A DNA stretch of 64,000 nt, taken from assembly GCA_041649635.1 (NCBI GenBank), contig JBAZMV010000001.1, positions 426,164-490,163 of the forward strand, given 5' to 3'. Each line of letters begins with the position of its first letter. Position 1 is the stretch's first letter. The notes beneath the pieces are model-generated. The model saw only the letters and a list, made by a program, of their open reading frames with translations, did not search any database and was not told the origin of the DNA. Positions 12,110 through 63,085 of this stretch are shown here, piece by piece. A program made the position numbers and the translations under genes. The stretch is from Dehalococcoidia bacterium (GTDB lineage: Bacteria > Chloroflexota > Dehalococcoidia > E44-bin15).

Positions 12110-13045
12110 TCCGAGGCGTACGTGCGGCTGTCGGCGGGTGATGCTGTGGCGGTATGCTCCGTTATTAAAAATAGCCCGGCTTCGCCGAGCGTCGGTTCAC
12201 GCTTACATTATACTACCAAATCGATTGTAAGGTAATTGCGGGTTTATGTCAAGAATATGATGGTGTCGGTCGATAGGAAACCGAACCCCCTGTCAGGCCC
12301 CTTTCTCAAAGCTGTCATTGCGAGTCCTTCCACGATAAAATTAGGCGGAAGGACGACGTGGCAATCTCGTAGCTGGTCAACCCCCTGTATCCCCCAATCA
12401 TGGGGGATGAAAAAAAAGATATAGGGGACACCCCTATAACCCCGTCAGGAGACTCTGTCTCCTGTACCTCTCTTAGCTAGCTAACCCCTCTCTCGGAGAG
12501 GTGCCTGGATTCGGATTGTAATATTAATAAACCCGTCTTGTAGGGGCGAGGTCATCTCGCCCTTCAGCCCCACCGTAGGGGCACGGCATGCCGTGCCCGT
12601 TGTGTTCCCCCTCTTTTTAGAAGAGGGGGTTAGGGGGTGTTAATTTAAAATTATTTCCCTCTCCCTGCGCAGGGAGAGGGTCAGGGTGAGGGTCGTACTC
12701 GTCATTCCGGCGAAGGCCGGAATCCGCGTAGGGGCGTATGGCCATACGCCCGTTATTTGGTGGGTTTCTGAACCCACCCTACATACGATCGTTGCGTAAG
12801 GGCTTGATTAATCAAGCCCTTACATCCCGGCCCCTATCGGCGAAAGAGACGACCTCGCCCCTACGCAAATCCCCCTTGCTCCCCCCTTTCATAAAGGGGG
12901 GAGATATATCTCGTTTATATGCTGTTGATGGTGTTCTTCACCTTCAACAATTAGAGGGTGTCCTTCTGCGGAAGGACTCCCGTTATTTGGTGGGTTTGCG
13001 AACCCACCCTACATACTACATACGATCGTTGCGTAGGGGCGAATC
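12110..13045. repeat. Mosaic repeat block (~0.9 kb; F,B,A,C,H,G,E,C,D,I,D,C modules)
   Basis: Contains no coding potential. ORF 12738..13076 in the six-frame track is a translation of D/C/I modules. Confidence 0.85.
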
Positions 13046-13072
13046 TTGTATTCGCCCTTCACGTTCCCCCTC

Positions 13073-13101: not shown

Positions 13102-13129
13102 ATCCAAATTTCCATTTGAGGGTAGGAAT

Positions 13130-13892: not shown

Positions 13893-13940
13893 ATCCCAAT
13901 TTGCATAGACGGAGCGTATGTGATCAAGAGGGACACAGCT

Positions 13941-16425: not shown

Positions 16426-16490
16426 CGCGAAGGCCCTTAAACATCGAGAAGGCCCTGTGATTTCTGAAGGATCTTATTCAGGGGGTGTTC

Positions 16491-24343: not shown

Positions 24344-26263
24344 ATGTGCGGGATATGCGGGCAGTTCATATTCAACGGCATAGCGCCGTCCGATATTGCT
24401 GCTACGAGCAACATGTGCTCGGTTCTGAAGCATCGCGGCCCGGATGACGAGGGTTTTTACAACGACGGCTTTATTTCGCTGGGTCATAGGCGACTGAGCA
24501 TCATAGATATAGAGGGCGGCCATCAGCCTATAAGCAATGAGGATGGAACGGTCTGGGTTATAACCAATGGCGAAATCTACAATTTTAAAGAGTTGCGAAA
24601 TGCTCTTGAGAAAAGCGGCCATGTTTTTTCCAGCAGGAGCGACAGCGAAGTTCTCGTTCACTTATATGAAGAGCAAGGACGCGCTTTGGTTAAAGAACTG
24701 CGGGGAATGTTCGCCTTCGCTATCTGGGATTCACGTAATAAGACTCTGCTTCTTGGAAGGGATAGATTAGGTAAGAAGCCTCTGTTCTATGCTTATAACC
24801 AAGAGCGTTTTCTGTTCGCATCAGAGCTCAAAGCTCTACTGCAAGAGCCAAGTATTAAACATGAAGTGAACTTAACTTCCCTGCACCACTTTCTGACGCT
24901 GCAATGGGTGCCCGGCCCCCAGACCATTATTCAGGGCGTTAACCAGCTACAGGCAGGCCATACTCTTGTCTGCTCCAACGGGCAGGTGAAAATAGAAAGA
25001 TACTGGGAACCGGAGTTCCTTCCCAAAAACAAGCTGTCAAAAGACGAAGCCCTGGAAGCCACGCAGTCATTGTTGGAAGAGGCGGTCAAGTTACGCCTGG
25101 TGAGCGATGTTCCCCTGGGAGCCTTCCTGAGCGGCGGGCTTGATTCTAGCTTGATCGTAGCCCTGATGGCGCGGGCAACGGATAAAAAGGTTAAGACCTT
25201 CTCCGTGGGGTTTACGGAAGAAGCCTTCAGCGAGTTAGAACATGCGCGTGCAGTTGCCAAATACTTTGATACCGAACACGAAGAGATATTTGTTAAGCCG
25301 GATATCATAGCATTGCTTCCCAAGCTCATATGGCATCTTGACCAACCTTTAGCCGACCCTGCCGCAATTCCAACATATTATCTATCGGAGTCTACAAGAA
25401 GGCATGTTACCGTAGCCCTCAATGGCGATGGCGGAGACGAAACCTTTGCAGGCTATCAGCGCTATTTTGCCGACGGTATAGCCGATGCTTATGCTGTTGT
25501 GCCTGCAGCAGTAAGAAATAAGCTCATTCTTCCTGTGTTGAGGAGGTTTACCGGCGTTTCGGATAAGCCCGTTGATACCGATGTTTGGGGTGCCGTAATA
25601 CGCATGCATCAGGCGGCTGATATTGCGCAGGAAGCCAGTATCATCAGGTGGGGTTCATATTTCAACTCCGACATGAAAGATGATATTTATAGTGATGAGC
25701 TGCGCAATACTCTGCGGAATACGGACTCCGTAGAACTGCTGCGTGAGACTTTCCGCCGCGCAGAAAATCATGCGGATAACAGGTTGGACAAGACACTGTA
25801 TGTTGATATGATGAACTATCTCCCCGACGACCTTCTGGTCAAGATTGACCGGATGTGCATGGCTAACTCATTAGAAGGGAGGTCGCCGTTTCTGGATCAA
25901 AAATTTGTGGAGTTTGCCTGCCGCATGCCAATAGAATTTAAGGATAAGAGAACGACTACAAAATACCTGCTGCGGGAACTGGCGAAAAAGATAATCCCTC
26001 AGGATATTGCCGCGCGGCGCAAGCACGGTTTCTCGGTTCCCATTGGAAGCTGGATCCGGTCGGAACTGAGAGATATGACATATGAAACATTGCTGAGCCC
26101 ACAGGCATTGAGCAGAGGCTATTTCAAGCAGCAAGCGCTTGAAAATCTTCTGGACGAACATTGTGCAAAAAAGGCTGACCATGGAAAGCGGATATGGGCA
26201 TTGCTTTGCCTGGAATTATGGCATCAAGTTGTTATAGATTATACAAAAATACCGATGAGTTAA
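24344..26263 (+). CDS. asnB: Asparagine synthase (glutamine-hydrolysing) family amidotransferase, glycan-cluster type
   Basis: N-terminal MCGI Cys nucleophile, SGGLDSS PP-loop motif, 639 aa. Confidence 0.85.
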   Translation: MCGICGQFIFNGIAPSDIAATSNMCSVLKHRGPDDEGFYNDGFISLGHRRLSIIDIEGGHQPISNEDGTVWVITNGEIYNFKELRNALEKSGHVFSSRSDSEVLVHLYEEQGRALVKELRGMFAFAIWDSRNKTLLLGRDRLGKKPLFYAYNQERFLFASELKALLQEPSIKHEVNLTSLHHFLTLQWVPGPQTIIQGVNQLQAGHTLVCSNGQVKIERYWEPEFLPKNKLSKDEALEATQSLLEEAVKLRLVSDVPLGAFLSGGLDSSLIVALMARATDKKVKTFSVGFTEEAFSELEHARAVAKYFDTEHEEIFVKPDIIALLPKLIWHLDQPLADPAAIPTYYLSESTRRHVTVALNGDGGDETFAGYQRYFADGIADAYAVVPAAVRNKLILPVLRRFTGVSDKPVDTDVWGAVIRMHQAADIAQEASIIRWGSYFNSDMKDDIYSDELRNTLRNTDSVELLRETFRRAENHADNRLDKTLYVDMMNYLPDDLLVKIDRMCMANSLEGRSPFLDQKFVEFACRMPIEFKDKRTTTKYLLRELAKKIIPQDIAARRKHGFSVPIGSWIRSELRDMTYETLLSPQALSRGYFKQQALENLLDEHCAKKADHGKRIWALLCLELWHQVVIDYTKIPMS

Positions 26264-26375
26264 CTAATCTAGAGGAGGTATAGGTATTAGTTCTCTTATA
26301 TCGCACTTAATTAAGCCTAAACGACATTCAAGAACAGGGAAAATAAATGTACTCCACGTAATAGATCATCTTGGA

Positions 26376-27491
26376 TTGGGCGGAGCACAGACACTGTTAT
26401 TGGATTTGTTAAAGGATTGGGACAGCGAAAAATACAGAGTATATGTCTGCGCTTTAAAGAAGCCAGGGGTATTGGATAAGCAAGCGAAAGCTCAGGGTTT
26501 AAACGTAAGTTATTTTGACAGACAGAAGTATGATCCCAGAAAGATTCTTGACCTGATCAGATTCATCAGGAAGAATAAGATTCAAATAGTTCACACGCAT
26601 CTGCTTGGCGCGGGCATTATTGGGCGGATTGCCGCAACTATTTGCCAAGTGCCAGTTGTGATTGTGCACGACCATAGCGGGTTCCCAATGTTGAGCAATA
26701 TCCCTACAGTATATTCGCGTCTTCTACGTATGATGGATAAACCACTGACGTATGTTACTGATAGAGTTATTGCAGTATCGTATTCAGTGAAAGAGCGGCG
26801 TATTAAAAGGGGATTACCAGATAAAAATAAGGTTGTTGTTATCCACAATGGTATAGATATAAATAAATTCAATAGTGATCTTTATGACAATGACAAAATC
26901 AGAGAGACTATGTCTATCGGTGCATCGGATGTAGTTATAGGGGCTGTTGGGCGTTTAAGTCCTGAGAAGGGGCTTGATTTTCTACTTGAGGCTGCGTCAA
27001 AGATTTATAGTAAATATACGGAAGCTAAGTTGGTCATAATTGGCGATGGGCCATGCAGAAATATGTTAGAGCAACAAACCATCGACCTGGGGATAAGTGA
27101 GAAGGTCATTTTCACCGGATTCAGAGATGATGTTCCCGAATTGTTATCGGCGATGGACATATTTGTTTCATCGTCGCTTTTTGAAGCGTTTCCGATGGTT
27201 ATACTAGAGGCAATGTCAATGTCCAAACCGGTGGTTGCTACAAATGTGGGGGGTATTCCAGAGATGATAATACCCGGTGTGACAGGTTTTATAGTGCCGC
27301 CAGGTGATTCAGAGGCTTTATATACAGCTATTATTCAATTGTTGGATGATCCGGACAGAAGGATAACGTTTGGTCAAAATGGGCGGCAACGTATTGAAGA
27401 GTTTTTTACAACGCAAGTCATAGTGAATAAACTAGTAGAGTTATATGATGAACTTGTAGGTTGTAAATTAAATAAGGCACATCTTGAATGA
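26376..27491 (+). CDS. GT4 family glycosyltransferase (true start probably upstream, non-canonical)
   Basis: GGAQ motif and EAFPMVILEAMSMSKPVVATNVGG. The conserved first beta-strand VLHVIDHLGLGGAQ lies in-frame upstream of the first TTG (26376). There is no ATG/GTG/TTG back to the in-frame stop at 26265. A GAGGAGG SD at 26272-78 sits 7 nt before an ATT at 26286. Confidence 0.7.
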   Translation: MGGAQTLLLDLLKDWDSEKYRVYVCALKKPGVLDKQAKAQGLNVSYFDRQKYDPRKILDLIRFIRKNKIQIVHTHLLGAGIIGRIAATICQVPVVIVHDHSGFPMLSNIPTVYSRLLRMMDKPLTYVTDRVIAVSYSVKERRIKRGLPDKNKVVVIHNGIDINKFNSDLYDNDKIRETMSIGASDVVIGAVGRLSPEKGLDFLLEAASKIYSKYTEAKLVIIGDGPCRNMLEQQTIDLGISEKVIFTGFRDDVPELLSAMDIFVSSSLFEAFPMVILEAMSMSKPVVATNVGGIPEMIIPGVTGFIVPPGDSEALYTAIIQLLDDPDRRITFGQNGRQRIEEFFTTQVIVNKLVELYDELVGCKLNKAHLE

Positions 27492-27506
27492 TGATGGAGA
27501 TCAAAT

Positions 27507-28730
27507 TTGAAAACTAATCTTCAAATAATTTCTAGGTTGCTATTAAATCTTCTGTTGTATAGTTTGTCTTATATAACTCCCAAAAATGAAGAATTGATAT
27601 TATTGGGGTCCGGCAAAGGGGGTTCCTTTAAAGGAAATCCGAAATATTTATATCTCTATGCCAATCGTGAAAGGGAGGTTAAGAACCGTTTCCAGTTTGT
27701 GTGGATTACTCAGAATAGAACCATACTTAAAAAACTCAAGGATGAGGGGTATCCAGTCGTTGATAAGTATAGTTTGAAAGGTTTTTGGACCATATTAAGG
27801 TCCAGTAATTTAGTTATAGAGCAATCCGCTAAAGATGTCAGCTATTTAGGTGTGCTTAACGGAAGGTTTAACATTATTCAAACTTGGCACGGAACCTTAT
27901 TTAAGAAAGTTGCTTTTGACGCCAAAAAAGTAGATCAAGAGAAAACATTGTTGACTCGAATATTCGATTATTTTCTTAATAAAGAATTTAATAATTACAT
28001 ATTCATTTGTTCTGCATCGGAGGAGACCTCTAGTAAGTTGATCCCAGCATTCAGAAATAATAATGTAGTGATTACCGGTTATCCGAGGAATGATATATTT
28101 TATTCCAATGAGATATCGTTTAACGATGTATTCAAAATCCTATCCCTAGGTTCTTATGAAAGGGTTGTAGTGTATGCTCCGACTTTTAGAGAAATCGCAA
28201 CATGTAAAGGCCCGTTTTCGGATACATTACTAGTTAGATTGAATAGTTTCCTAGCGGACAATAATTACATAATGCTGATTAAGAAACATCCTTTTGAAAA
28301 GGTATTGGTATCTATAACGGGATACTCTAATATCAAAGACGTGTCTAAAGAAGTTGATGATGTACAGGAACTATTAGCATATACGGACATTCTTATCACT
28401 GATTATTCAAGTGTTTATTTCGACTATTCGTTAACTGATAAACCAATTATCTATTACCCTTATGACTATAAAGGATATTTAAAGAACTGCCGGGAATTCT
28501 ATTATGACTATTATGAAGAGCAACCCGGGCCGTTCGCACACACTGAAGAGGAGCTATTAGTATTGCTTAAAGATATCAATGACTGGTTTAATGATGAAGG
28601 ATACAGAATTAAATATAGAAATTTTAAGAACAAATACAATCACTTTCAAGATGGTAATAGTTCTGAAAGGACTTATCAGATAATTATCGATCTTCTGAAT
28701 TCAAGAAAATCTGCAGGAAAGTTAGAGTAA
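27507..28730 (+). CDS. CDP-glycerol/CDP-alcohol poly(polyol-phosphate) phosphotransferase family (TagB/TagF-like)
   Basis: ILITDYSSVYFDY signature of the TagF family. TTG start behind a ggaga SD. Very AT-rich (~30% GC). Confidence 0.7.
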   Translation: MKTNLQIISRLLLNLLLYSLSYITPKNEELILLGSGKGGSFKGNPKYLYLYANREREVKNRFQFVWITQNRTILKKLKDEGYPVVDKYSLKGFWTILRSSNLVIEQSAKDVSYLGVLNGRFNIIQTWHGTLFKKVAFDAKKVDQEKTLLTRIFDYFLNKEFNNYIFICSASEETSSKLIPAFRNNNVVITGYPRNDIFYSNEISFNDVFKILSLGSYERVVVYAPTFREIATCKGPFSDTLLVRLNSFLADNNYIMLIKKHPFEKVLVSITGYSNIKDVSKEVDDVQELLAYTDILITDYSSVYFDYSLTDKPIIYYPYDYKGYLKNCREFYYDYYEEQPGPFAHTEEELLVLLKDINDWFNDEGYRIKYRNFKNKYNHFQDGNSSERTYQIIIDLLNSRKSAGKLE

Positions 28731-28735
28731 CGGCA

Positions 28736-29260
28736 ATGAGACAAAGAGTAATGGACTTATTGATGGCAACTAAGTTTTTAGAAGTTACTGAAATCAAAGC
28801 GTCACAACTAGCCTTTGAGGAGAGAGTACACCTGAACTGTTTTCACTGTATACGTTATGGTGTGAACTGGACCTGCCCTCCAAAAATTCCACAAGTAGAC
28901 TATCAAAAGCTCATTTGTGAATATGAAAACCTACTGTTAGTTTACTGCAAAATGCCGTTGACAGCCGATAAATTTGAAGTCGTTAGAAGGACGTCAACTA
29001 ACACTCTTCACCATGCTTTGCTTGCCGCCGAGAAGCTATTATGGGAATCAAACTATCCGCTGGCCATTTCTTTTATGGGGGGTTCATGTAAACTTTGCCC
29101 CGAAGGTTGTGATGAACTTGCCTGCCGGCATCCTGATAAAGCAAGAATTCCTCTGGAAGGAATCGGGGTAAACGTAGTAAAATCAGCTGAGAATGTTGGA
29201 TTAAATATTGTTTTCCCACCTGTGGATTACATGTTCCGGGTAGGATTACTAGGATGGTGA
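28736..29260 (+). CDS. Cys-rich hypothetical protein (putative metal-binding, possibly DUF2284-like)
   Basis: CFHC...C and CKLCPEGCDELAC clusters. AT-rich. Confidence 0.5.
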   Translation: MRQRVMDLLMATKFLEVTEIKASQLAFEERVHLNCFHCIRYGVNWTCPPKIPQVDYQKLICEYENLLLVYCKMPLTADKFEVVRRTSTNTLHHALLAAEKLLWESNYPLAISFMGGSCKLCPEGCDELACRHPDKARIPLEGIGVNVVKSAENVGLNIVFPPVDYMFRVGLLGW

Positions 29261-29263
29261 GAA

Positions 29264-29980
29264 ATGAAAGTGATTATCCTCGCTGCAGGTTTGGGAACAA
29301 GACTTAGACCACTGACCACAAATATACCCAAGTGCCTTTTTAAATTAAGTAAGGATCAGACTATCATTGGCAGAATGGTAAACATCATTAAGAAAATTTC
29401 AGATTCTCCTGTTTACGTTGTTACCGGTTTTATGCATGAAAAAATAGAGGGTCAACTGGCAGGCGTGGAATTTGTTCATAACCCTTTCTACCGTGTAACC
29501 AATAGTATCGTATCTCTTTGGTTTGCCCGTGAACATCTCGATGATGATGTGATCATCATTAATTCTGATATAGTCATACAAGCCCCAATATTCGAAGAGG
29601 TTTTGAAAATTGAACATCCCGCCGCAGTATTGATAGATTCATCCAAAGCGCGCACTGCAGATTACAAGGTAGCCACCTATAATGATAGGGTTATCATGAT
29701 GAGTAAAGAACTTACTGCTAATTCCGGTGAATACGTTGGTATCACCAAACTTTCCAGGGCAGCAGCAGGCAGTCTAAAACAAAAAATTGAAGAAATGGTT
29801 AAAAATGATCAGATAGACGAGTGGTACGAGAATGCATTGGTGAACATGATACTCGATGATGATTTTGACCTGAATTATGTTGACGTCTCGCATCTGCAGT
29901 GGGTTGAAATTGACACAGTAGATGATCTCTTAATGGCCAGAAAAATATGTGATATGGAAAGAAGTGGTAATGACGTTTAA
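29264..29980 (+). CDS. Sugar/alcohol-phosphate nucleotidyltransferase (LicC-like cytidylyltransferase family)
   Basis: MKVIILAAGLGTRLRPLT NTP-transferase signature. 238 aa, like LicC. Confidence 0.75.
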   Translation: MKVIILAAGLGTRLRPLTTNIPKCLFKLSKDQTIIGRMVNIIKKISDSPVYVVTGFMHEKIEGQLAGVEFVHNPFYRVTNSIVSLWFAREHLDDDVIIINSDIVIQAPIFEEVLKIEHPAAVLIDSSKARTADYKVATYNDRVIMMSKELTANSGEYVGITKLSRAAAGSLKQKIEEMVKNDQIDEWYENALVNMILDDDFDLNYVDVSHLQWVEIDTVDDLLMARKICDMERSGNDV

Positions 29981-30650
29981 TGTCGCCTTGGTCACAGGAG
30001 CTACCGGCGGAATAGGTAGCGCTATCAGTGAAGAATTAAGAACCAGCGGGTTTCGGCTCGCTCTTCTCAGTCGGAGCATTTCTTGTCATGAATCCGAGAG
30101 CATGCTGGCACAACGTTGTGATGTTACTAAGGTAGATGAAGTGGAAAAAGCCGTTACCGCTACTTTGAAAAAATTCGGCAACATTGATGTTGTAATCAAT
30201 TGTGCTGGCAGGAGTCATCTTGGTACAGTAGATGAACTCACAGAACAAGATATACAGGCTGTATACGACGTTAATGTCAAAGGAACAATCAATGTCTGTA
30301 AAGCGGTTTTACCATGTATGAAGAAACAGAAGTCAGGTTATATTATCAATATCGGGTCATTGCGCGGTATTGAATACGGCGTTGGTAAGTCTGCATATTC
30401 AATGAGTAAATCTGCTGTAATTGCTTTTTCCAATGTCTTAGCTATGGAAACCGCCGAGTACGGAATAAAAGTTACCGTGATTAATCCGGGCTTTGTCCAG
30501 ACCAGCCTGATAAGGCATAGGATAGCTGAAGAAAAACTCAGGGCTGAAGATCTTACTCAGCCTGGTGATATTGCCAAAGTCGTGTTGTTCCTTCTCGAAT
30601 TGTCTCCAGGCGCCAGTATTGTTGAGTTAAATATTGGGCGTTTATGGTAA
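29970..30650 (+). CDS. SDR family oxidoreductase
   Basis: TGATGGIGS and YSMSK (YxxxK) motifs. Overlaps the upstream gene by 11 nt. Confidence 0.8.
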   Translation: MTFNVALVTGATGGIGSAISEELRTSGFRLALLSRSISCHESESMLAQRCDVTKVDEVEKAVTATLKKFGNIDVVINCAGRSHLGTVDELTEQDIQAVYDVNVKGTINVCKAVLPCMKKQKSGYIINIGSLRGIEYGVGKSAYSMSKSAVIAFSNVLAMETAEYGIKVTVINPGFVQTSLIRHRIAEEKLRAEDLTQPGDIAKVVLFLLELSPGASIVELNIGRLW

Positions 30651-30741
30651 TGCGGTTTCAAAACATGAAAACTTAACCGCGCAGCTCACTGCAGACACAT
30701 ATTTTCAGCAAGAACTTATAGAGTTTCGCAAAGACGAATGA

Positions 30742-32028
30742 ATGATCAAACGCTTTTATGATTTAACCAAGTATAAGCTTGCAACGATTGTTTCCGCGAA
30801 ACTGATAAAGGAAACTGCTTGGAGCTTCTTGGCGCAAGGCTCTGCCTTTATTTTTTTCATAGGGCTCAATCTTTTTCTCGCCCGTTACCTTGGCCCGGAC
30901 CGCTTCGGTGAATGGTCTTTCTTCTTTTCCATCTTAAGCATAGTCCTTCTTGTTTCATATTTAGGCATTAACGCGTCAGCCCGCAAGTTTATCGCTCAGC
31001 ATAATGAGACGGCTGAATTGAAGGCTGTATTGCGCTCCTCGGTTAAACTGAGGGTCATCCTAAGCCTGGTTTTTGCCCTGGTTATGCTGTCTTTAAGCAA
31101 GCCTCTGGCCGTCTGGCTGGATCGCCCAAGCTTTGAGGTTTTGTTCTATGCCGCCGCCCCGCTAGTATTCTTTGCCAGCCTAGTTGAATATCTGAAAAAT
31201 GCTTTTCAAGGGCTGCACCGCCTGAAATATGACTTCTATATAAATCTGTCTGAATACGGACTCAAGCTTTTACTGGCTGTTTGCTTTTTGCTCATTCTTA
31301 ACGAGATTATTGGGTTGGTTTTCGCCTTTAACCTGGCTTTTATCGTTACAACGGTATTGGGTTTTTACTTTCTTTACCGCCATTTCTATAAGAACCGGCC
31401 GGATTCAGGGACTGATTACACCAGACAGCTATTGCAATACAGCCTGCCGCTGTTCGTTATCAGCATCGGCTTTCTAATTGCTACTGAAATAGATACTGTA
31501 ATGATAGGTATTCTAAGCACGGATTACGAGGTGGGTATATACGCGGTGGCCAAGCAGATAATCATCAAGCTGCCGCATATCGCCTTGGTGATATCGCTGG
31601 GCACCATGCCGCTGTTTGCCAAGTTGAATCAGGATAATAAAGAGTATCTGAAAGCACTGTTCTACCGGTTGTTGAAAATCAACACGGTGATATTTGGCTC
31701 GATCATTATATTAATACTAGCTGCGGGTTGGTATTTCATCCCTTTGATATTTGGCGCAGAATATAAGGACTCAGTCTTGCCCCTGGTTATACTGATACCA
31801 TATTTGATTATTTATTCTTATTCAATATTCCTGTCTTCCTTCCTCGACTACCGGGGCAAGGCTAGAAAAAGGGCCATTAACTTGATTATCGCGTTATTAC
31901 TAAACCTTGGACTGAATCTGGTTCTAATTCCAAGATACGGAGCAGTAGGTGCGGCAATTGCCACCTCTGTTTCCTATTTCCCGTATTTAGTGCTGAATTG
32001 GCTTGAAGTAAGAAAAAGCTTCCAATAG
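30742..32028 (+). CDS. Polysaccharide biosynthesis protein / Wzx-like flippase (MOP superfamily)
   Basis: 428 aa, ~12 predicted TM segments, and located within the glycan cluster. Confidence 0.7.
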   Translation: MIKRFYDLTKYKLATIVSAKLIKETAWSFLAQGSAFIFFIGLNLFLARYLGPDRFGEWSFFFSILSIVLLVSYLGINASARKFIAQHNETAELKAVLRSSVKLRVILSLVFALVMLSLSKPLAVWLDRPSFEVLFYAAAPLVFFASLVEYLKNAFQGLHRLKYDFYINLSEYGLKLLLAVCFLLILNEIIGLVFAFNLAFIVTTVLGFYFLYRHFYKNRPDSGTDYTRQLLQYSLPLFVISIGFLIATEIDTVMIGILSTDYEVGIYAVAKQIIIKLPHIALVISLGTMPLFAKLNQDNKEYLKALFYRLLKINTVIFGSIIILILAAGWYFIPLIFGAEYKDSVLPLVILIPYLIIYSYSIFLSSFLDYRGKARKRAINLIIALLLNLGLNLVLIPRYGAVGAAIATSVSYFPYLVLNWLEVRKSFQ

Positions 32029-32037
32029 CCCGCCATT

Positions 32038-34749
32038 TTATTCCCTTACTTCTACGATCCAAATACAATCATTTGGATTATTATTTATACATATTTTTTC
32101 GATGGGTTCATATGTATAATATTCAATTAGCGGAGTTTCCGCAGCAACTCTAGCATATAAATATCTTTCTCCTTCTTCATATGCTTTCACATGCTTTTCC
32201 CAAATAGGCTGTATATGTGAGGATAGTACTAAATACTCTATTTCAAGTTCCTCATTAAATGGGTTGTCACGTCCTCTCCAATAACTTGTGCCTATAAAAA
32301 ATCTATCAAAGCCCTCTACGTCAACCCAGACTACCATATTTTCTGCGTTATCCCAAGAATTGACGATTTGTGCTAGTTTGTACCCGCCCATTCCCCATGA
32401 ATAAGAAATTCGATAATCTTTAATGTTCAAATGATTGTTATATAAAAGAAAGTAAGGTGCTGCAAAAAATGTTGTGATAAGTGCTGCAGCTATCAATGCG
32501 GTAGTAACTATTTTCGTATGTTTAAAAACGTAAATAAAAAAAGTTGCTGATAATATTGAGTAAAGAGGATATAACATAATCTGGTATCTACATGAAGTCA
32601 CAAAACCACCTAAAGAAGAACCGACTATATATACAAACATTGTTAAAAAGATAATAGATATTAAGAACTTATCTTGGTTGGTGATATTTATATTTAAACG
32701 TTTCTTTAAAGGTAATATCAAAGCCCAAAAACATATTCCGAAAAGTATTGGAAATGTCATGGTGAAGGCTGTCATGTAAGATGATGTGAATAAATCTTTG
32801 TAGAAAGACACCTCACCCCTTGCAGATTCGTAAAAAATGTAATGGTTAAAATCAAAAAGTGCGTTGTTAAGAAATATATTAGCCATTAATACAATAAGAG
32901 CTATTAATGTAAGTGAGCTAAAAACGTATATTACCACAGTGGGAATATCGAATTTGCTTTTTAAATACTTAGTAATACGGCCTCGAAGAGCTATCAATTC
33001 GATGAATATTAACAGCAGTATAAGTAGGAAATACTTCAGACCTGGTGTTAGAATTCCTGCACCAATAGTTCCTTTGATAATCCGGGATGGTTCTACCCAT
33101 GTTGCTGGAAATAGAATTGTATAAATAATAATGGAAATTACGTACAGTGCCAAGATATGCAGACAACGTGAAAAGAATTGTTCACGGGTAGTATTTCTTG
33201 AGAGATATTCTAGATAGATGCTAAGGAAAAAGATGACATAGAAAATGGCGGCAAAGTATTTGCATATCAACGCAAGGCCCAAGAACACTCCTGAATATAT
33301 AATGTATCTCAATTTATTTGTTTTAAGATAGAGAAAGAATGTGATGAACGATAAAAATGAGACGCTCCAGAGAGTAGCGTCCGGATTAACAATCTGGCTA
33401 ATTCCAATAAGGATAGGATTGAGCGCAACAAGCCCTGTTACTAATAGAGCATGGTTTTTCCGCAGTAATTTTTTAAGGAAATGGTATATAAGAAATAGCA
33501 TGAGGAAATTAAATATGACAATTGGTAACCGCCAATAAAATAAATAATTTTCATATATTAAAGGGTCTGCTTTATATTCCTCATGATCCATAAAAAAGTT
33601 GACAGTGCCAGCGAGAAGAGACGGCAGCACGCCAGGTTTATCATTGATATACGTGCCTTCCCAGTCACCGGAGGCGAGTGAATCATAGAGTTGCGGCACC
33701 CTGGTATCTACCCATTTTGGCTCGTCAACTGTCATAAATTGACCAAGGTGGTGTGTTCCGAAACCAAGAAAGAGAAAGCAGCAGAGTAGAAGTGCTGCGC
33801 TATACCACCACCCCTCTTTATACATCCACCTAATGAACCACCTAAAAATTGGGACCCTGTTAATCCGAGGGAACCGCGTACCAAAAGATCTCTTCCTCTC
33901 CGCTTCTTCCGCTCCTTCCTCCTCTATTTTAACTGTGACTTTCAGCTTCTGCCGGTTCATCCAGAAGAACATGATACCAAAGATAACGGTGGCCACTATA
34001 AGACCGGTTCGGCTGCCCTCCAGTGATGTCAGGTCAAAAATAGCTTGCAGAGCCAGAACCAATAGAAGTACTAAGAACAGAGCCATCGTCGCCACCCGCG
34101 CAACCCTTCCAACCCATCGCCTCTTCCCATGTCCCGCCATCGTCTCCGCGGGCGCGACGTCGGGGGTTGAGAGGCCCGCGGCCGCTCGTTCCGCCCTTAT
34201 CACCGAGGCCAGCGTGCGGGGGGCGGGTCTGCTGGGTTTCGATCTGCCTGTCCTCAGCCGGGACCTGTACAGCATGACCATCACGGCTATAATAGCTATC
34301 AACTCCGCGGCTATGGTGCTGATGATCAGGGCGTTGAGGTTTATGTGGTATGAGACGCTGCCCTCCCAGAATGTTTCCACCGCAACCAGCGTCAGCAGGA
34401 TGATGGGAAATATCAGCAGCAGCGCCAGAGCGGCGCGGCTCACCGTCCTCACCGTCTCGCTCTGGCCGGACTGCCATTCCGCGAACCGCTCCCTCAGCCC
34501 GCTCAGGCTTATCCCGCGCGCGCGCAGGTAGCGCCCCAGATATTTATTGAGGATGACAGCGACTATCAGGAAGGCCAGGACGATGGCAAGAACTACCAGC
34601 ACGCTGATGTTCATGAGGTTGCCCACGCTGTCGTCCCAGATATACTCGATGAGGATGAGCAATATGGAAACGGCCAGCAGCGAGATGCCGGCGCCCTTGA
34701 GGGAGATGTATTGGTCTATCTTTTTGATCAGGGATTTAATGGTTTCCAT
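32038..34749 (-). CDS. GT-C fold membrane glycosyltransferase (GT39/ArnT/PMT-like) with a ~290-aa GC-rich N-terminal membrane extension; compositionally chimeric
   Basis: VDEPKW acidic DE motif in the first extracytoplasmic loop after TM1 of the GT-C core, multiple TM helices, and a C-terminal soluble domain. GC drops from ~65% (34.7-33.9 kb) to ~30% (33.7-32.0 kb) inside one ORF. Confidence 0.7.
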   Translation of the reverse strand: METIKSLIKKIDQYISLKGAGISLLAVSILLILIEYIWDDSVGNLMNISVLVVLAIVLAFLIVAVILNKYLGRYLRARGISLSGLRERFAEWQSGQSETVRTVSRAALALLLIFPIILLTLVAVETFWEGSVSYHINLNALIISTIAAELIAIIAVMVMLYRSRLRTGRSKPSRPAPRTLASVIRAERAAAGLSTPDVAPAETMAGHGKRRWVGRVARVATMALFLVLLLVLALQAIFDLTSLEGSRTGLIVATVIFGIMFFWMNRQKLKVTVKIEEEGAEEAERKRSFGTRFPRINRVPIFRWFIRWMYKEGWWYSAALLLCCFLFLGFGTHHLGQFMTVDEPKWVDTRVPQLYDSLASGDWEGTYINDKPGVLPSLLAGTVNFFMDHEEYKADPLIYENYLFYWRLPIVIFNFLMLFLIYHFLKKLLRKNHALLVTGLVALNPILIGISQIVNPDATLWSVSFLSFITFFLYLKTNKLRYIIYSGVFLGLALICKYFAAIFYVIFFLSIYLEYLSRNTTREQFFSRCLHILALYVISIIIYTILFPATWVEPSRIIKGTIGAGILTPGLKYFLLILLLIFIELIALRGRITKYLKSKFDIPTVVIYVFSSLTLIALIVLMANIFLNNALFDFNHYIFYESARGEVSFYKDLFTSSYMTAFTMTFPILFGICFWALILPLKKRLNINITNQDKFLISIIFLTMFVYIVGSSLGGFVTSCRYQIMLYPLYSILSATFFIYVFKHTKIVTTALIAAALITTFFAAPYFLLYNNHLNIKDYRISYSWGMGGYKLAQIVNSWDNAENMVVWVDVEGFDRFFIGTSYWRGRDNPFNEELEIEYLVLSSHIQPIWEKHVKAYEEGERYLYARVAAETPLIEYYTYEPIEKICINNNPNDCIWIVEVRE

Positions 34750-35395
34750 ATGTTTAGATGAGTGTAATAGTGTGGGTAAATATTATCAACCCCCTGGAAT
34801 CCCCCTTGAAAGGGGGAAACAACATCCGAACCCCCTGTAGTCCCCCATACGTTGGGGGACGTTTTAATTAATATAGGGGACACCCCTATAACCCCGTCAG
34901 GAGACCCTGTCTCCTGTACCTCTGTTTCAGCCTGTCATTGCGAGAAGTCCTTCTAGATATCTTTATTCTGGAAGGACGCCGCGGCAATCTCAACTATAAT
35001 CAACCCCCTGTATCCCCCAATCTTGGGGGACGTAAAAAAAGAGCTGGGGGACACCCCCAGTTCCCCCGGAAGGAGCTTCTCCTTCACCTCTTTCCTTTGC
35101 AACACAGGGGACACCCCTATAACCCCGTTCCTTCCGCGGAAGGATACCTCTGTTTCAGACTGTCATTCTGAATCCTTGCCTGGAATGATGAAGAATCTCG
35201 ACGAGATCCTTCGGCGCTACCTCAGGATGACATGCTGCGAAATAATTAATCCCTACGTGGTGGGTTAAACAAACCCACCCTACAACTACGAACCGTCATT
35301 CCGGCCCCGTATCGCCGTACGGGGTAAACTCCGGCCGGAATCCATATCGGGCGAACGCCGTTCGCCCCTACTACACGCTACACGCTACCCGCTAC
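34750..35395. repeat. Mosaic repeat block (B,B',A,F,B,A',A,F',D,E)
   Basis: Modules as defined in the summary. Confidence 0.85.
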
Positions 35396-41269: not shown

Positions 41270-41600
41270 CTGCAAGCCGCGGCATATTATGCGAATATCG
41301 AGTGTAGGGGCGTATGGCCATACGCCCCTACGTGGATTCCGGCATCCGCCGGAATGACGAAACGTAGGGGTTTGATTCATCAAACCCGCAGTCGGCTGCG
41401 CCCACCCCCTGGTTCCAATTGTTGAAGGTGAAGAACACCATCAACAGCATATAAGGACTCGCAATGACAGCTGCGAGAGACAGGGGAGTCCAGAGGGTTC
41501 TCCCTCTGACGGGGGTTTGGGGGTGTCCCCCATTCTTTTTTTTACATCCCCCAAGACTGGGGGATTGCAGGGGGTTGACAACATTTCATTTATTGAAATA
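41270..41600. repeat. Repeat block (C,E,D-like,I,F,A,B reversed)
   Basis: Modules as defined in the summary. Confidence 0.8.
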
Positions 41601-41604
41601 ATCC

Positions 41605-42366
41605 CTACCCCTGCGCCTGATCGTCCGCGCGTTTGTTTTTTCTCCGCCGCCCCAGCCATATAAGCACACCGCCCGCGATGATCAAAGTAACGCCCACCGC
41701 CACCAGCAGCCAGCCCCACCAGGCTATCCCCCCCAGCCATAATTGCACGGCTTCCATCTCGCTCCAGCCGATGTAGGTCAAATAGCATCCCACGAATGTT
41801 TTAGGCAAACGTCCGGCCAGCGTAGCCAGGAGGTACTTCCAGAAAGGGAACCTGAGAGCCCCCGCAACCAGTCCGACGATATCGAAAGGGAGCGGCGTCA
41901 GGGCAAAGATAAAAACGGTCAGGCTCCCGTGGCGTCTCATCCAAACCTCGGCTCTCTGGTACCATACGGATCGCTGCTTGCTGATGATGACCCGGCCGGC
42001 GTATCCTACCGCATATCCCGTGAACTCGCCGAGGGCGCTGCCCACGCTGGAGGCCAGGGCTATCACAGCCCAGTTGGTTGCCGGGCTCACCACGAGAGCG
42101 CCGATGATTACGAATGCGAAAACAGGGAAAAATATCGTGGTGCTGGCGATGAACGACACCAGGAAAGCCCCCAGCGCTCCGTATTCCGTGAAGCCCTCCA
42201 GGTAGCTGGACGCCCGAAAGATGGCATAGCCCATGCCTAGAGTGGCTATGACCAGCAACGCCACGATAGACCACTGCTGCCCCCGGCTCAGCTTATCGAT
42301 CTTCTCGGAGGAGCGACGGACCAGGTCGGCGGTGCGGTTAATCAACCCTTGATACAGTTTCGACAA
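41605..42366 (-). CDS. DedA/TVP38/VTT-domain family membrane protein
   Basis: FALTPLPFDIVGLVAGALRFPFWKYLLATLAGRLPKTF, the VTT-domain consensus. 253 aa. Confidence 0.75.
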   Translation of the reverse strand: MSKLYQGLINRTADLVRRSSEKIDKLSRGQQWSIVALLVIATLGMGYAIFRASSYLEGFTEYGALGAFLVSFIASTTIFFPVFAFVIIGALVVSPATNWAVIALASSVGSALGEFTGYAVGYAGRVIISKQRSVWYQRAEVWMRRHGSLTVFIFALTPLPFDIVGLVAGALRFPFWKYLLATLAGRLPKTFVGCYLTYIGWSEMEAVQLWLGGIAWWGWLLVAVGVTLIIAGGVLIWLGRRRKNKRADDQAQG

Positions 42367-43279
42367 GGTAAGTCTCCAGCCCCAATTCCTTTAACGAACG
42401 ATGTATTTTCCCCGCCCGCGCGCGGTCGCGCATAAGGGCGAACAGCGTCGGCCCCGCCCCCGCCAGATGCGCCTCGTCTGCGCCCGCTTCATCGAATTTA
42501 TTCCGATACCATTCCATGCCCTCGTACATCTCGCAGGCCACGAAATCGAATGTGTTATATCCCTGAAAAAGAGGTACAGGATTATTCCTGACGGGGGCTT
42601 GGGGGTGTCCCCCAATTTTTTTAATTCCCCCATGATTGGGGGATACAGGGGGTTGATGTCCCTCAACCGCAGACTCGATAAATGCCTCCGTCTTTCTAGC
42701 ATAATCGCCCTTGCTATAGTGAGACGGCCTCAGCGCGCCGTACATGGCCTTCGTCTTCGATACCGGAACCGTAACCGACGGTTTCAGCAGAACGACGTAC
42801 GACAGCGGCAGCGGCGGCAAAGGCGTGACGCGCTCCCCGCGGCCCTCGGCCAGAGCCGTGCCGCCCCGGATGAAATAAGGGACATCGGAGCCCAGAGTCG
42901 CCGCCATCTCGACCAGTTCTTCAGTCGAGAGGTTGAGCTTCCACAACCTGTTCAAAGCGACAAGCGCCGCGCCCGCGTCGCTCGAGCCTCCCCCCAACCC
43001 GGCGGCGACCGGTATGCCCTTCTTCAAAATAATCTTCGCGCCGCCTTTGTACCCCGATTCCTTCTTCAGCAGCCTCGCGGCCTTGAGCGCCAGGTTATCG
43101 GACGGGCGAAGTTCGACATTATCGCAATCGATAGAAAGCGACGGAGCGGCCTCGAACTGAATGGTGTCCTTCAGATCGATCTCCTGCAATATGGAAACAA
43201 TATCGTGATAGCCGTCCTCGCGGCGGCCCAGCACCTCGAACGTGATATTTATCTTGGCGTATGCGTATGCCGTTATCAT
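42338..43279 (-). CDS. ispE: 4-diphosphocytidyl-2-C-methyl-D-erythritol kinase carrying an in-frame 99-nt repeat (A+B module) insertion
   Basis: GHMP kinase motifs KINITF, PVAAGLGGGSSDAGAALVALN and AGAGPTLFAL. ATG at 43279 overlaps the rsmA stop (ATGA). Codons ~219-251 (plus 42563-42661) are a repeat copy read in-frame. Confidence 0.8.
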   Translation of the reverse strand: MITAYAYAKINITFEVLGRREDGYHDIVSILQEIDLKDTIQFEAAPSLSIDCDNVELRPSDNLALKAARLLKKESGYKGGAKIILKKGIPVAAGLGGGSSDAGAALVALNRLWKLNLSTEELVEMAATLGSDVPYFIRGGTALAEGRGERVTPLPPLPLSYVVLLKPSVTVPVSKTKAMYGALRPSHYSKGDYARKTEAFIESAVEGHQPPVSPNHGGIKKIGGHPQAPVRNNPVPLFQGYNTFDFVACEMYEGMEWYRNKFDEAGADEAHLAGAGPTLFALMRDRARAGKIHRSLKELGLETYLVETVSRVD

Positions 43280-44109
43280 CTCTTCTTCGAAAACACCCGA
43301 TAGAGCTCGGCCCACTCCGCGATGCTCAATGTCTCCGCCCGGCGCTTCGGGTCTATGCCCGCGCCGTCGAGGATATCGCCCGCCTCGTTCGGCGCTATGC
43401 GAAGCCCGTGCGACAGCGAGTTGCGCAGCTGCTTGCGCGGCGTTGAGAAGCCGCCGCGAACCACGTTGAAGAATGCGGCCTCGTCATCCACCTTGACCGG
43501 CGGGTCGCGGTAAACATCTATGTGCACGATGGCGGAATCGACCTTGGGCTGCGGGTAGAAGCTGCGCGGCGGTATGATTTTCACGATCGCAGGCTTGCCG
43601 TATAGCTGCACCCCCACGCTGAGCAGGCTCATATCTCCCGGCTTGGCCGCTATCGACTGCCCGACCTCCTTCTGCACCACGGCGACGATCACTGTCGGCT
43701 TGCGGCCCGCTTCCAGGAAACGGCGCAGCACCGCCGAGGCGATGTTGTAAGGCAGAGCGCCGACGACTTTGTAATCTCGATCTGACGGCACCAGCGATTC
43801 CGGAGCGCAATCCAGTATGTCCGCCTCGATGATCTCAACATTATTCGAATCCGCGAACTTCTCCCTCAGCGCCGCGGCCATCGTCCTGTCCAGTTCGACC
43901 GCGACAACACGGCCGGCTTCTTTTGCCAGTTCCTGCGTAAGCACACCGAGCCCGGGCCCGACCTCAACGACGTAATCATCGGGCGTAAGCTTTGCAGCCG
44001 CGACGATTCTATCCAGAGCATGCTTATCGACAAGGAAGTTCTGCCCCAGCCCCTTCCTGGCGCGGGTATCCAGCCGCCGCAGTTCCCTTTTCGTCTCGCT
44101 TAGAAGCAT
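43276..44109 (-). CDS. rsmA: 16S rRNA (adenine1518/1519-N6)-dimethyltransferase RsmA/KsgA
   Basis: GQNFLVD and VVEVGPGLG motifs, 277 aa, in the conserved ksgA-ispE arrangement. Confidence 0.9.
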   Translation of the reverse strand: MLLSETKRELRRLDTRARKGLGQNFLVDKHALDRIVAAAKLTPDDYVVEVGPGLGVLTQELAKEAGRVVAVELDRTMAAALREKFADSNNVEIIEADILDCAPESLVPSDRDYKVVGALPYNIASAVLRRFLEAGRKPTVIVAVVQKEVGQSIAAKPGDMSLLSVGVQLYGKPAIVKIIPPRSFYPQPKVDSAIVHIDVYRDPPVKVDDEAAFFNVVRGGFSTPRKQLRNSLSHGLRIAPNEAGDILDGAGIDPKRRAETLSIAEWAELYRVFSKKR

Positions 44110-44114: not shown

Positions 44115-45105
44115 CTCTTTAACTAATCCCTGACTCAGGAATCCCCTGGCACTCACCTTTCGAAACGTCGTTCTTCAGAATCGGGAAGTGCAGAGGGCTC
44201 TCCCTCTGCCGGGGTTTCAGGGGTGTCCCCTGTCTCTCTATTTTATGTCCCCCATGATTGGGGGATACAGGGGGTTGATATATCATTTTCAACTCAACCC
44301 ATAAATAAAAAAGGCCGTGCACCCGCCGTCGATCTTACCCCGCGGATCGCCCCTGCCGTTCAGCTCAAACCAGGCAACCCTGCGGCACCCAGAAACCGCT
44401 ATTTACCGCTGCTTCCTTCCGGACCTGACGGGGTTCATAGCATTCTGCCGCGCAGGACCCAATCATCAACACCTCCCTACAGAGACAACTGCCGACAGGA
44501 TTAAGACCTTGGACGGGAATTCAGCCCCGCTATAGCGGATTTCGGGTACAGGGCACCGCTGGCTCCCCGCCTAGCACGACCAAACCTGATACTATCTTAC
44601 CGATATTTCGTTGTCAAGCTTATCGAACTCACCCCGGCCCTCTCTCGCATGAGAAAGAGGTGAAGGAGAAGCTCCTTCCGGGGTAGTACAGGGGTGTCCC
44701 CTGTTTATTTAAATTCCCCCAAGACTGGGGGATAACAGGGGGTTGATGAGATTGCCGCGTCGTCCTTCCGTAGTCAGAGTGTATGGAAGGACTCCTCGCA
44801 ATGACAGTCAGAAATAGATACGTAGGGTGGGTTCGCAAACCCACCGCGTAGGGGTAACCCCCCGTGGTTACCCTCCCAAAGGGCAGGGCAAGCCCTGCCC
44901 CTACGTTTATTCCGGCCTTCGCCGGAATGACGGCTTCGGAAAGAGGTGCCCCGATAAATCGGGGCCGGGGGAACCGGGGGTGTCCCCCGGATTATTCTAT
45001 GTCCCCCAACGTATGGGGGACTACCAGGGGGTTCGGTTATTGTTTCCCCCTTAAAAAGGGGGATTCCAGGGGGTTGACACCTCTTATCTCATTCCTATAT
45101 GTTGT
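44115..45105. repeat. Mosaic repeat block (~1 kb; A,B reversed; A,B,F,D,E,A',B,B')
   Basis: The N-terminal 83 codons of six-frame ORF 44864..45991 are a repeat translation. Confidence 0.85.
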
Positions 45106-45991: not shown

Positions 45992-46785
45992 ACTCGCCCT
46001 TCCTTCCATGATATTGAGGTATATCTCCCCCCTTTATGAAAGGGGGATCAGGGGGATTTACGTAGGGCGGGTTTCCAACCCGCCGCGTAGGGAGACGTAT
46101 TCGTATGGTGGGTTCACAAACCCACCATGTTGACGAGATTCTTCATCGTTCCCAGCAAGGATTCAGAATGACAGCCTTGAGAAAGGGGAGTCCAGAGGGA
46201 GCACCCTCTGACGGGGTTATAGGGGTGTCCCCTATATCTTTTTTTTCATCCCCCAAGATTGGGGGATACAGGGGGTTGATGATAGTTGAGATTGCCACGT
46301 CGTCTTTCCGAACTGCTGAAGTACTCCTCGCAATGACAGTCCAAGAGAACAGAGGTTCAGTTTGTAGGGCGGGTTTCCAACCCGCCGAATAACGGGCGAA
46401 TGATTATTCGCCCCTACGTGGATTCCGGCCTTCGCCGGAATGACGGGTACGACCCTCACCCTGACCCTCTCCCTGCAGAGGGAGAGGGAAATAATTTTTA
46501 AATTAACACCCCCTAACCCCCTCTTCTCAAAAGAGGGGGAAGAGGCTCCGCCTCGGGGTTTTACCGACACTAAAGATTATGGTTTATTCACGCTCACTTT
46601 AGTCCTCTCCCCTCAAGGTAGAGGTTAGCTTCTCACAGAGGTACAGGAGACCCTGTCTCCTGACGGGGTTATAGGGGTGTCCCCTATCTATTTTTTTATA
46701 TCCCCCATGACTGGGGGATTCCAGGGGGTTGAACCTAACCTACCGGACGGTTGCCTAATTCTCAATCTCCATATAAAATAGTAAA
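45992..46785. repeat. Mosaic repeat block (J,D,D,F',A,B,F,D,C,E,G,H,A,B mostly reversed)
   Basis: Modules as defined in the summary. Confidence 0.85.
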
Positions 46786-58039: not shown

Positions 58040-58635
58040 AGAGCACGAACTCCCCCTAACCCTCTCTTTAATAAAGAGGGGGAAGTCCTTCCATGGAAGG
58101 ACAGGGGTGTCTCGTATTCCGTAGGGGCATCCTTCCATATGCCTTAATGTCATGGAAGGATTGTGCCTGCCCTCTGTGGGCGACCACGAGGGTCGCCCCT
58201 ACGCGATGACCAACGTATCGGGGATTCAAGGGGTTGAATATCGACTAGATTGCCGCGTCGTCCTTCCATATACCGTGATATCATGAAAGGACTCCTCGCA
58301 ATGACAGGCAGTAACAGGGGAGTATAGAGGGATCGCCCTCTGACGGGGTTTTAGGGGTGTCCCCTATCTTTTTTAACGTCCCCCAAGATTGGGGGACAAC
58401 AGGGGGTTGATTCCAACGAGATTCTTCATCCTTCCAGAGAATCTTATTATGGAAGGATTCAGAATGACAGGTTAAAATTAAAAGAGGTACAGGAGAAATT
58501 CTCCTGATGGGGGAACTGGGGGTGTCCCCCAGATTTATTAATGTCCCCCAACGTATGGGGGACTACTAGGGGGTTCGGTTATCGTTTCCCCCTTCAAGGG
58601 GGACCGCAGGGGGTCCCAACTAAACTAGAGGCGAC
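58040..58635. repeat. Mosaic repeat block (H,J,C-like,B,F,A,B,J,A',B,B')
   Basis: Separates thioesterase paralogs 2 and 3. Confidence 0.85.

Positions 58636-62699: not shown

Positions 62700-63085
<386 letters not shown>

Follow-up and report, generated by a model that had tools for sequence, protein, structure and literature searches.

A three-hairpin palindromic repeat, very probably a tolerated passenger, lies in frame within the ispE gene of a Dehalococcoidia bacterium

In-frame insertions of palindromic repeats into housekeeping genes have been described for Rickettsia palindromic elements (RPEs), enterobacterial repetitive intergenic consensus (ERIC) sequences, QMITE1/2 of Coxiella and transposable elements of the miniature inverted-repeat type (MITEs) of Anabaena (PMC10969869; PMC5896051). 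For three of the ten RPE families, nearly half of the elements are reported to lie in genomic open reading frames (ORFs) (Ogata et al. 2000, reviewed in PMC10969869). A survey of repetitive extragenic palindromic (REP) sequences reports GTAG- and CGTC-tagged REPs as singletons, dimers and clusters in dnaE, uvrA, tRNA synthetase genes and others, where they add 20-82 residues (PMC3733652; Di Nocera et al. 2013). We describe here a comparable locus in a 64 kb window (64,000 nucleotides; positions 426,164 to 490,163 of contig JBAZMV010000001.1, assembly GCA_041649635.1) of the genome of a Dehalococcoidia bacterium, to which all repeat counts and ORF checks in the source genome refer. Its ispE gene harbors a repeat copy in frame. 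This copy very probably belongs to a Dehalococcoidia-specific family similar to REPs and bacterial interspersed mosaic elements (BIMEs), and is carried by the enzyme as a tolerated passenger, not as a new domain.

The minus-strand ORF 42338-43315 runs without a stop through the repeat segment at 42563-42661, as the initial annotation had read from the sequence, and the translation across it is SAVEG-HQPPVSPNHGGIKKIGGHPQAPVRNNPVPLFQ-GYN (feature coordinates are given in Table 1). Alignment with homologues led us to choose the ATG at 43279 as the start codon. The resulting protein scores 218.5 bits against the ispE model TIGR00154 (cut-off 138.7), contains the domains GHMP_kinases_N (PF00288, E = 5e-20) and GHMP_kinases_C (PF08544, E = 5e-6), and can be aligned to solved IspE structures along its N-terminal two-thirds. 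All columns that are invariant among 117 aligned homologues are retained, including K9, G94-G96 of GLGGGS and D132. At the site of the insert, 110 of the 120 closest IspE homologues, with a length of about 285 aa, have a loop of only 9 residues, e.g. GVVKDGLPM, so the segment is an extra, lineage-specific loop as had been proposed. The 33 residues that were said to be added correspond to 33 repeat-derived codons. Since the repeat replaces part of the 9-residue loop, however, the protein is only 28 residues longer than its nearest insert-free orthologues (313 against 285 aa). In the DNA, some 92 nt of repeat (42566-42657) are found in place of about 8 nt of the old loop of L003, an insert-free orthologue; the limits of this core are based on that comparison and on the intergenic copies, which align to positions 13-17 through 100-110 of the nhmmer query.

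A structure model of the protein, calculated with AlphaFold2 (AF2) from 117 homologues, has a mean predicted local distance difference test (pLDDT) score of 90.6. Values below 50 are confined to residues 213-233, and no secondary structure is modelled over residues 206-240. This low-confidence stretch follows the helix 192-205 and precedes the strand/helix that starts at the conserved N-x-F-D motif. With the AF2 model as query, the top 18 Foldseek matches are all IspE structures (including 1oj4, 1uek, 2v2q and 4emd), with target-normalised TM-scores of 0.76-0.87 (about 0.8-0.87 for these four). In the model the fold is intact and the insert is a predicted surface coil between two well-predicted helices, compatible with the IspE fold. 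The inserted Pro/Gly-rich loop of about 33 residues is probably disordered, judging from the same prediction.

The repeat consists of three short G/C-run hairpins and an A-rich linker, with a total length of about 85-95 nt. The two modules (A+B) first assigned to it were not upheld, as alignment and folds both give a unit of three hairpins. In the ispE sense the order is (A/G)TCAACCCCCT, hairpin 1, the A-rich linker, hairpin 2, (A/T)(A/T)CCCC, hairpin 3 and a tail of ACCTCT plus pyrimidines, and the stems measure 5-8 bp. Hairpin 1 has the consensus TCCCCCA, a loop of 4-5 nt and TGGGGGA, and its stem is invariant in 21/21 copies. Hairpin 2 follows the consensus NN[A/G]GGGG-ACA-CCCC[T/C]NN, and its outer two pairs show compensatory changes among copies, from AU to GC in 6 and from UA to CG in 4. 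There are four self-complementary versions of the hairpin 3 stem (CAGGAGAC/GTCTCCTG, CAGAGGG/CCCTCTG, GCCCCGAT/ATCGGGGC and GGAAGGAG/CTCCTTC). This hairpin is directly preceded by CGTC in 13 of the 21 copies and by CGGC in 6, a tag that hairpins 1 and 2 do not have; its stability is -6.5 kcal/mol in the ispE copy and ranges from -6.5 to -17.8 kcal/mol, mostly about -13, in the intergenic copies. We hold the hairpins to be real because of the folds, the compensatory pairs of stem 2 and the four versions of stem 3, and the aligned copies indicate that they are under structural selection. The unit has no terminal inverted repeats, only the internal hairpins and one internal alternative pairing. 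Rfam places no family over any copy at the gathering threshold, and near the insert gives only chance-level matches (E = 1.7 and 3.7).

The family is abundant in the window. A 30-nt piece of the insert occurs 5 times with up to 3 mismatches (0 by chance), and a 15-mer 10 times (0.24 expected). The numerous copies first reported were recovered by nhmmer with the ispE copy as query, which gave 21 near-full and 9 partial copies, several of them in clusters of full and partial units (14366-14560, 34783-35158, 44648-45084 and 62766-63078). Among these 30 hits the ispE copy is the only one deep within a long ORF; the copies at 44940-45084 are located in the untranslated head of a stop-to-stop frame, before a metallo-beta-lactamase gene. 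Scanning one genome for each GTDB species with a sequence pattern gave at least 120 loci. Among the 87 matches listed, all belong to metagenome-assembled genomes of Dehalococcoidia, Dehalococcoidales, Chloroflexi, Chloroflexota or Chloroflexia, except one labelled only 'bacterium', and within this set the family appears to be restricted to Dehalococcoidia/Chloroflexota. The loci from other genomes contain 139 strict-pattern copies, nine of them in long stop-to-stop frames, and none of the 139 is truly intragenic, as on inspection each of the nine either precedes a real start or falls in a junk frame. Likewise, none of 213 hits of a family hidden Markov model in 780 kb of other Dehalococcoidia DNA is truly intragenic, the sole candidate being upstream of the real start. 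Among the candidates inspected, those in L017, L101 and others were rejected as lying before the real start codons in stop-to-stop frames. Because other genomes show no truly intragenic copies, the ispE copy is, on this comparison, a rare survivor in a gene from a family that is almost exclusively intergenic.

Searches with the peptide carry less weight. A word-indexed search with a 5-sequence profile found only three short hypothetical ORFs; it missed IspE itself, and little weight is placed on what it did not find. An exhaustive HMMER search with a 40-aa peptide against 1.84 billion cluster representatives returned only six short ORFs (52-157 aa), a weak negative because the representatives were chosen at 50% identity, which hides inserts specific to a lineage, and IspE was missing from the output. 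Public protein collections contain 'hypothetical proteins' of 52-157 aa with GGHPQTPGRKNPAPLFQ-type peptides (P0121-P0128), which are apparently translated intergenic copies; in this way the family gives rise to spurious ORF calls when metagenomes are annotated. Many copies are flanked by further modules, ACGACGTGGCAATCTC or CCCTTGAAAGGGGGAAACAATAACCG upstream (e.g. 12353-12375, 15620-15643 and 46285-46303) and CTGTCATTCTGA, CCGTCATTCCGGCGAAG or CTGTCATTGCGAG downstream (after 15745, 21205 and 44917). These are probably other palindromic repeat families in the same intergenic mosaics.

In its build the Dehalococcoidia element is closest to REP/BIME mosaics. Both are high-copy families of short, G/C-rich, intergenic hairpins that stand next to each other in variable combinations and show compensatory variation in the stems. 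The CGTC before hairpin 3 and the short tail after it may correspond to the REP layout, and the intragenic REPs match exactly the situation of the ispE insert (PMC3733652). However, the Dehalococcoidia unit of about 90 nt is made of three different hairpins in fixed order and not of single palindromes of 20-40 bp, its hairpins 1 and 2 have neither a GTAG nor a CGTC tag, and the survey reports no CGTC repeats from Chloroflexi. No RAYT-type transposase was found near the repeat, and no transposase domain was detected with Pfam, in a non-exhaustive scan of 20 window ORFs.

Likeness to RPEs had been suggested at the outset, and it holds for the behaviour of the ispE copy, as in both cases a short dispersed palindromic repeat sits in frame within a housekeeping gene, adds a translated peptide, apparently a surface loop, and leaves the host protein apparently functional. 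Terminal inverted repeats or a transposase gene are evident in neither. This likeness does not extend to the whole family. The family occurs in Dehalococcoidia/Chloroflexota and has a three-hairpin unit (the comparison is by description, not by RPE sequence), its intergenic copies are not kept open-reading, and only one of the 30 window hits, and none of the 213 elsewhere, is intragenic, unlike RPEs, which are often found in ORFs. It cannot be called an RPE because the host differs and the repeat is rarely intragenic. MITEs such as ERIC, QMITE1/2 and those of Anabaena are also small, non-autonomous, mostly located between genes and occasionally a source of in-frame peptide additions, but terminal inverted repeats and target-site duplications are part of their definition, whereas the Dehalococcoidia repeat has internal hairpins only. 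A MITE identity is ruled out by its ends, which are not complementary. Repeat-borne intrinsic terminators, represented by the pneumococcal SPRITE among the repeats listed in PMC10969869, resemble it in that hairpin 2 is followed by 7-8 T in antisense and hairpin 3 by a pyrimidine tail in sense; in the Dehalococcoidia repeat, however, the strong terminator-like site appears mostly to face against the neighbouring genes. Neither this repeat family nor an ispE insertion was found described in open-access papers and preprints. The novelty put forward by the initial annotation was nevertheless overstated, since in-frame palindromic insertions themselves are documented across phyla (PMC3733652, PMC10969869). 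The ispE insertion thus is a further case of a documented phenomenon, caused by a repeat family that appears undescribed in the searchable literature.

The insert exists in several alleles among relatives. The gene order rsmA-ispE-VTT/DedA is identical across all related loci fetched and the compared IspE genes are therefore orthologues; an RrnaAD (Pfam) neighbour is present in every related locus, a VTT/DedA neighbour is found too, and the 4-nt overlap of the rsmA stop with the ispE start is likewise seen. The P0003/L002 allele has the same three-hairpin insert as the window. P0002/L001, with 95-98% nucleotide identity to the window, is without exactly 51 nt between the near-identical 9-mers TTGAGGGAC and TTGGGGGAC, and hairpin 1 is gone. 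In P0004, P0006 and P0048 the three hairpins are extended by about 30 nt, P0021 combines hairpin 3 with a different hairpin, and P0020, P0023 and P0024 have only a hairpin-3 remnant (RKSPAPLFQK, net +3 residues), in which the old loop is replaced and not merely interrupted. The six length variants (net +9, +33, +84, +105, +114 and +123 nt) are all stop-free multiples of 3, which argues for translation of the insert and against its being skipped. The window ispE copy shares 85-86% identity and a core length of 85 nt with the ispE copies of carrier clade ii, while its identity to 20 intergenic copies of its own genome is 67-81%, with intergenic cores of 89-95 nt. L004 (clade ii) and L007 (clade iii) have a common right-hand junction, ...CCTCT(Y)TTTC(R)G(A)(W)GTTTCC(Y)ATGTATAAC. 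No direct repeat was seen at the ispE junctions, which is a weak test, as L003, the nearest empty site, differs by about 20% and the old loop is partly replaced. Related in-frame inserts were found in independent assemblies, L001 (Logan), L002 and L005 (ENA), L004 (NCBI) and L006 (JGI), and the insert is therefore neither an assembly artefact nor a one-off frameshifted pseudogene.

A second, unrelated insert was observed in four distant Dehalococcoidia IspE proteins of 313-316 aa (P0082, P0099, P0100 and P0118). It is Lys/Pro/Glu-rich, has about 29 residues (alignment columns 69-97) and is located at another site, after the strand ending in ...DC(R/D)xP(E/D)L.

Outside the insert, dN/dS between insert carriers is 0.16 (window and L001), 0.17 (window and L002) and 0.23 (L004 and L005). 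These values suggest that the host gene is functional and under purifying selection, and with the related inserts of independent assemblies they speak against a disrupted or frameshifted ispE, part of an outcome that had been named as fatal to the proposal. Inside the insert the pattern is different. Between the window and L002, dS is 0.025 inside against 0.63 outside and dN is 0.057 against 0.109; between the window and L004, dS is 0.116 against 0.86 and dN is 0.256 against 0.19. The insert estimates are based on only about 20 synonymous sites. In both comparisons omega within the insert exceeds 2, and synonymous sites are 7-25 times more conserved there than in the remainder of ispE. The window and L002 inserts have 5 differences, all in loops or linkers, of which at least 4 alter an amino acid. 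With low dS and a drifting peptide, it is therefore the nucleotides and not the peptide that appear conserved or young, and these substitutions indicate that the peptide is unconstrained while the stem nucleotides are either constrained or of recent arrival.

The orientation of the copy may have been decisive for its survival. On the plus strand, hairpin 2 (42599-42615) precedes a TTTTTTT run and is scored as an intrinsic terminator directed against ispE. This is general to the family, whose antisense strand, with hairpin 2 and 7-8 T, matches the terminator consensus, while hairpin 3 and its pyrimidine tail form a weaker terminator-like site on the sense strand. At the unambiguous sites of the window, about 11 of 14 copies are oriented as their neighbouring genes by manual reading. 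A copy inserted in ispE in the opposite direction would probably terminate transcription of ispE and of the overlapping downstream gene; given the antisense site, only the sense orientation would allow both to be transcribed. Two of the three sense frames of the ispE copy are without stops, and this openness together with the orientation filter would explain how the copy survived in an essential gene. The unusually low stability of its hairpin 3 on the sense strand may likewise have favoured this variant. Open frames are not a property of the family as argued for RPEs. A coding-ready repeat is ruled out by the intergenic copies, in which commonly all frames contain stops and the length is not divisible by 3.

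The copies also show a polarity along the window. All 13 repeat hits left of 35.2 kb (1855-35158) are on the plus strand and all 17 right of 39.9 kb (39965-63078) on the minus strand, and the switch coincides with a change of gene strand and of GC-skew sign near 32-40 kb. The link to flanking genes is loose, as the copies at 34783-35158, 46175-46733 and 58339-58572 face against their neighbours. Across 120 of the loci matched in other genomes, adjacent copies with a spacing of at least 300 nt have the same orientation in 53 of 63 cases (p = 3e-8). This polarity could come from selection against the antisense terminator in operons, or from a replication-linked bias as in single-strand elements of the IS200/IS605 type. 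GC skew was rejected as a marker of origin or terminus, being confounded by gene orientation and the low-GC island described below.

As an explanation for the locus we consider it very probable that this copy, sense-oriented and in an open frame, is transcribed and translated with ispE. The loop of 9 residues found in orthologues ahead of the N-x-F-D helix of the C-terminal GHMP domain gives way to a Pro/Gly-rich one of about 33, with the kinase fold and catalytic motifs left intact. A single old insertion event at this loop would have been followed by remodelling, in which slippage between the two 9-mers that bound the 51-nt deletion removed hairpin 1, other alleles were extended, and others shrank to a remnant of hairpin 3. 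The segment with the insert would then have passed between related lineages by homologous recombination. Such a course, from one old insertion through modular in-frame decay to lateral spread, is the most economical account of the alleles and, on the sequence comparisons, a reasonably likely one. Several observations weigh against parts of this explanation. In a simple neighbour-joining tree with the insert columns excluded, the carriers fall into three separate clades among insert-free relatives, so that a single origin needs lateral spread or several losses, each restoring the 9-residue loop; ancestral presence with repeated losses back to that loop is the least likely version. The sign of transfer is itself ambiguous: L002 (ENA ERZ27247969 k141_840397) is 85-93% identical to L003 along the rsmA-ispE-dedA locus, while a tract of about 300 nt centred on the insert is instead 94-95% identical to the window, and this mosaic could be a recombinant allele or a chimeric metagenome contig. 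The low dS of the insert, with its few synonymous sites, could reflect recent transfer instead of structural constraint. Variants with a short stem 3 are intergenic in other genomes too, so that the weakness of hairpin 3 is not necessarily an adaptation to residence in a gene. Finally, that the loop is tolerated and translated we infer from frame conservation, dN/dS and structure prediction. The three clades could also mean that the IspE loop was invaded separately in each, as a preferred target or as the sole permissive site in an essential gene, and left junctions that vary by clade, with some 30 extra nt in L004/L005, and the existence of an intergenic short-stem-3 subfamily in other genomes would agree with this. 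We consider such independent hits less likely, since the ispE copies are closer to each other, in identity and core length, than the window copy is to its intergenic relatives, and L004 and L007 have a common right junction. Moreover, with 0 of 213 copies elsewhere in any other gene, three separate hits on one loop would be a remarkable coincidence.

The other alternatives concern what the insert does, or whether it is real. It may have been exapted, with the loop acting as a new interaction or regulatory surface of IspE, or with the hairpins acting in mRNA or DNA, for instance as a translation pause between the GHMP domains, in mRNA stability, in ispE/dedA stoichiometry or as a block to antisense transcription. 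The conserved synonymous sites, the stems kept while loops vary, the persistence and seeming spread of the insert in several lineages and the good terminator-like site on the antisense strand would all suit such a role. We nevertheless regard exaptation as improbable, because the insert is absent from 110 of 120 close relatives, the modules kept differ greatly between alleles, down to a net remnant of 3 residues, the peptide has an omega above 2, is predicted with low confidence and is probably disordered, and recency or recombination could also explain the nucleotide conservation. A more specific proposal, speculative and in our view rather doubtful, is that the IspE loop is a long-lived 'coding REP' locus, in which the hairpins would be kept for a nucleic-acid function while the peptide drifts, the cassette would be exchanged among Dehalococcoidia lineages by homologous recombination, and modules would be gained or lost in multiples of three. 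The function may be to block antisense transcription, to signal mRNA stability or to pause translation. If true, a selfish or regulatory RNA/DNA structure would be spreading as an allele within an essential enzyme gene. A misassembly at the repeat, or a decaying copy of ispE, is very improbable. The assembly is of metagenome type and repeats are classic misjoin sites, but both flanks are colinear in-frame ispE sequence, the insert recurs in the five independent assemblies from other samples and pipelines, dN/dS between carriers is low and the frame is kept in all variants. It is harder still to believe that the insert is skipped by ribosomal bypassing or cut from the mRNA to give a protein without the loop. 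The insert does have stable hairpins, as accompany known bypass and processing signals, yet no pressure to keep the frame or to avoid stops would then be expected, and all six length variants are in frame and stop-free, in contrast to the intergenic copies.

A repeat carried as a tolerated passenger by IspE adds a clean multi-allele case, from an uncultured and environmentally important lineage, to the few known selfish palindromic repeats in essential proteins, where gene callers and orthology pipelines would otherwise see merely an odd, long IspE. The natural alleles range from no insert through a remnant, two hairpins and three hairpins to an extended form; they make a gauge of how much loop a GHMP kinase tolerates, and can also reveal whether it is the RNA/DNA or the peptide that is under constraint. 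The family itself, strongly strand-polarised and with a terminator-like module on one strand, matters for the annotation of Dehalococcoidia genomes, where it gives many spurious small ORFs.

Table 1. Coordinates of ispE, its repeat-derived insert, the neighbouring genes and selected intergenic repeat copies in the window
Feature	Position	Strand	Evidence
ispE (313 aa, 4-diphosphocytidyl-2-C-methyl-D-erythritol kinase)	42338..43279	-	TIGR00154, GHMP domains, AF2 model
Repeat-derived in-frame segment, 33 codons (GHQPPVSPNHGGIKKIGGHPQAPVRNNPVPLFQ)	42563..42661	-	Sequence and translation; absent from 110/120 closest homologues
Core of repeat copy, 92 nt (ATCAACCCCC...CCTCTTTTT)	42566..42657	-	Family alignment; comparison with insert-free orthologue L003
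Hairpin 1, TCCCCCA-AUCA-UGGGGGA in mRNA sense	42626..42643	-	RNA fold, inverted repeat I3
A-rich linker; on the plus strand, T-run after hairpin 2	42616..42625	-	Sequence, fold
Hairpin 2, UUGGGGG-ACA-CCCCCAA	42599..42615	-	RNA fold, inverted repeat I2
Hairpin 3, CGTC before, pyrimidine-rich tail after; about 5 bp in ispE copy	42574..42592	-	RNA fold
rsmA/ksgA-type rRNA adenine dimethylase gene	43276..44109	-	ORF; upstream of ispE, 4-nt overlap with ispE start
VTT/DedA-family membrane protein gene	41605..42366	-	Pfam VTT_dom; downstream of ispE, 29-nt overlap with ispE end
Full intergenic copy, three full-length hairpins (8-bp stems)	12376..12474	+	nhmmer E = 3.2e-13; fold; inverted repeats
Nearest intergenic copy, just downstream of DedA-family gene	41494..41582	-	nhmmer E = 9e-11; alignment
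Intergenic copy between rsmA and SRP RNA gene	44194..44283	-	nhmmer E = 3.3e-10

Several other features of the window were recorded. A gene for the large bacterial signal recognition particle (SRP) RNA (RF01854, 199 bits) is located at 44315-44579 on the minus strand, with repeat copies on either side (44194-44283 and 44648-44748). There is a c-di-GMP-I-GGC riboswitch (RF03167, 63.4 bits, gathering score 59) at 16338-16419 on the plus strand, upstream of the ORF 16485-17270, and a partial repeat copy (16097-16141) is found just before it. Two adjacent genes encode CAP domain proteins of the cysteine-rich secretory protein family (13046-13597 and 13881-14351, plus strand), the second being followed by the repeat cluster 14366-14560. 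One ORF of 2645 aa (2158-10095, minus strand) spans 8 kb and drives a strongly negative GC skew. The low-GC island at 24000-34000 has a GC content of 0.39-0.44, compared with about 0.55-0.60 elsewhere, and harbors genes for polysaccharide biosynthesis/flippase and PMT-type glycosyltransferase functions; it is probably horizontally acquired cell-envelope glycan DNA, and repeat hits resume at its right edge (34783-35158).

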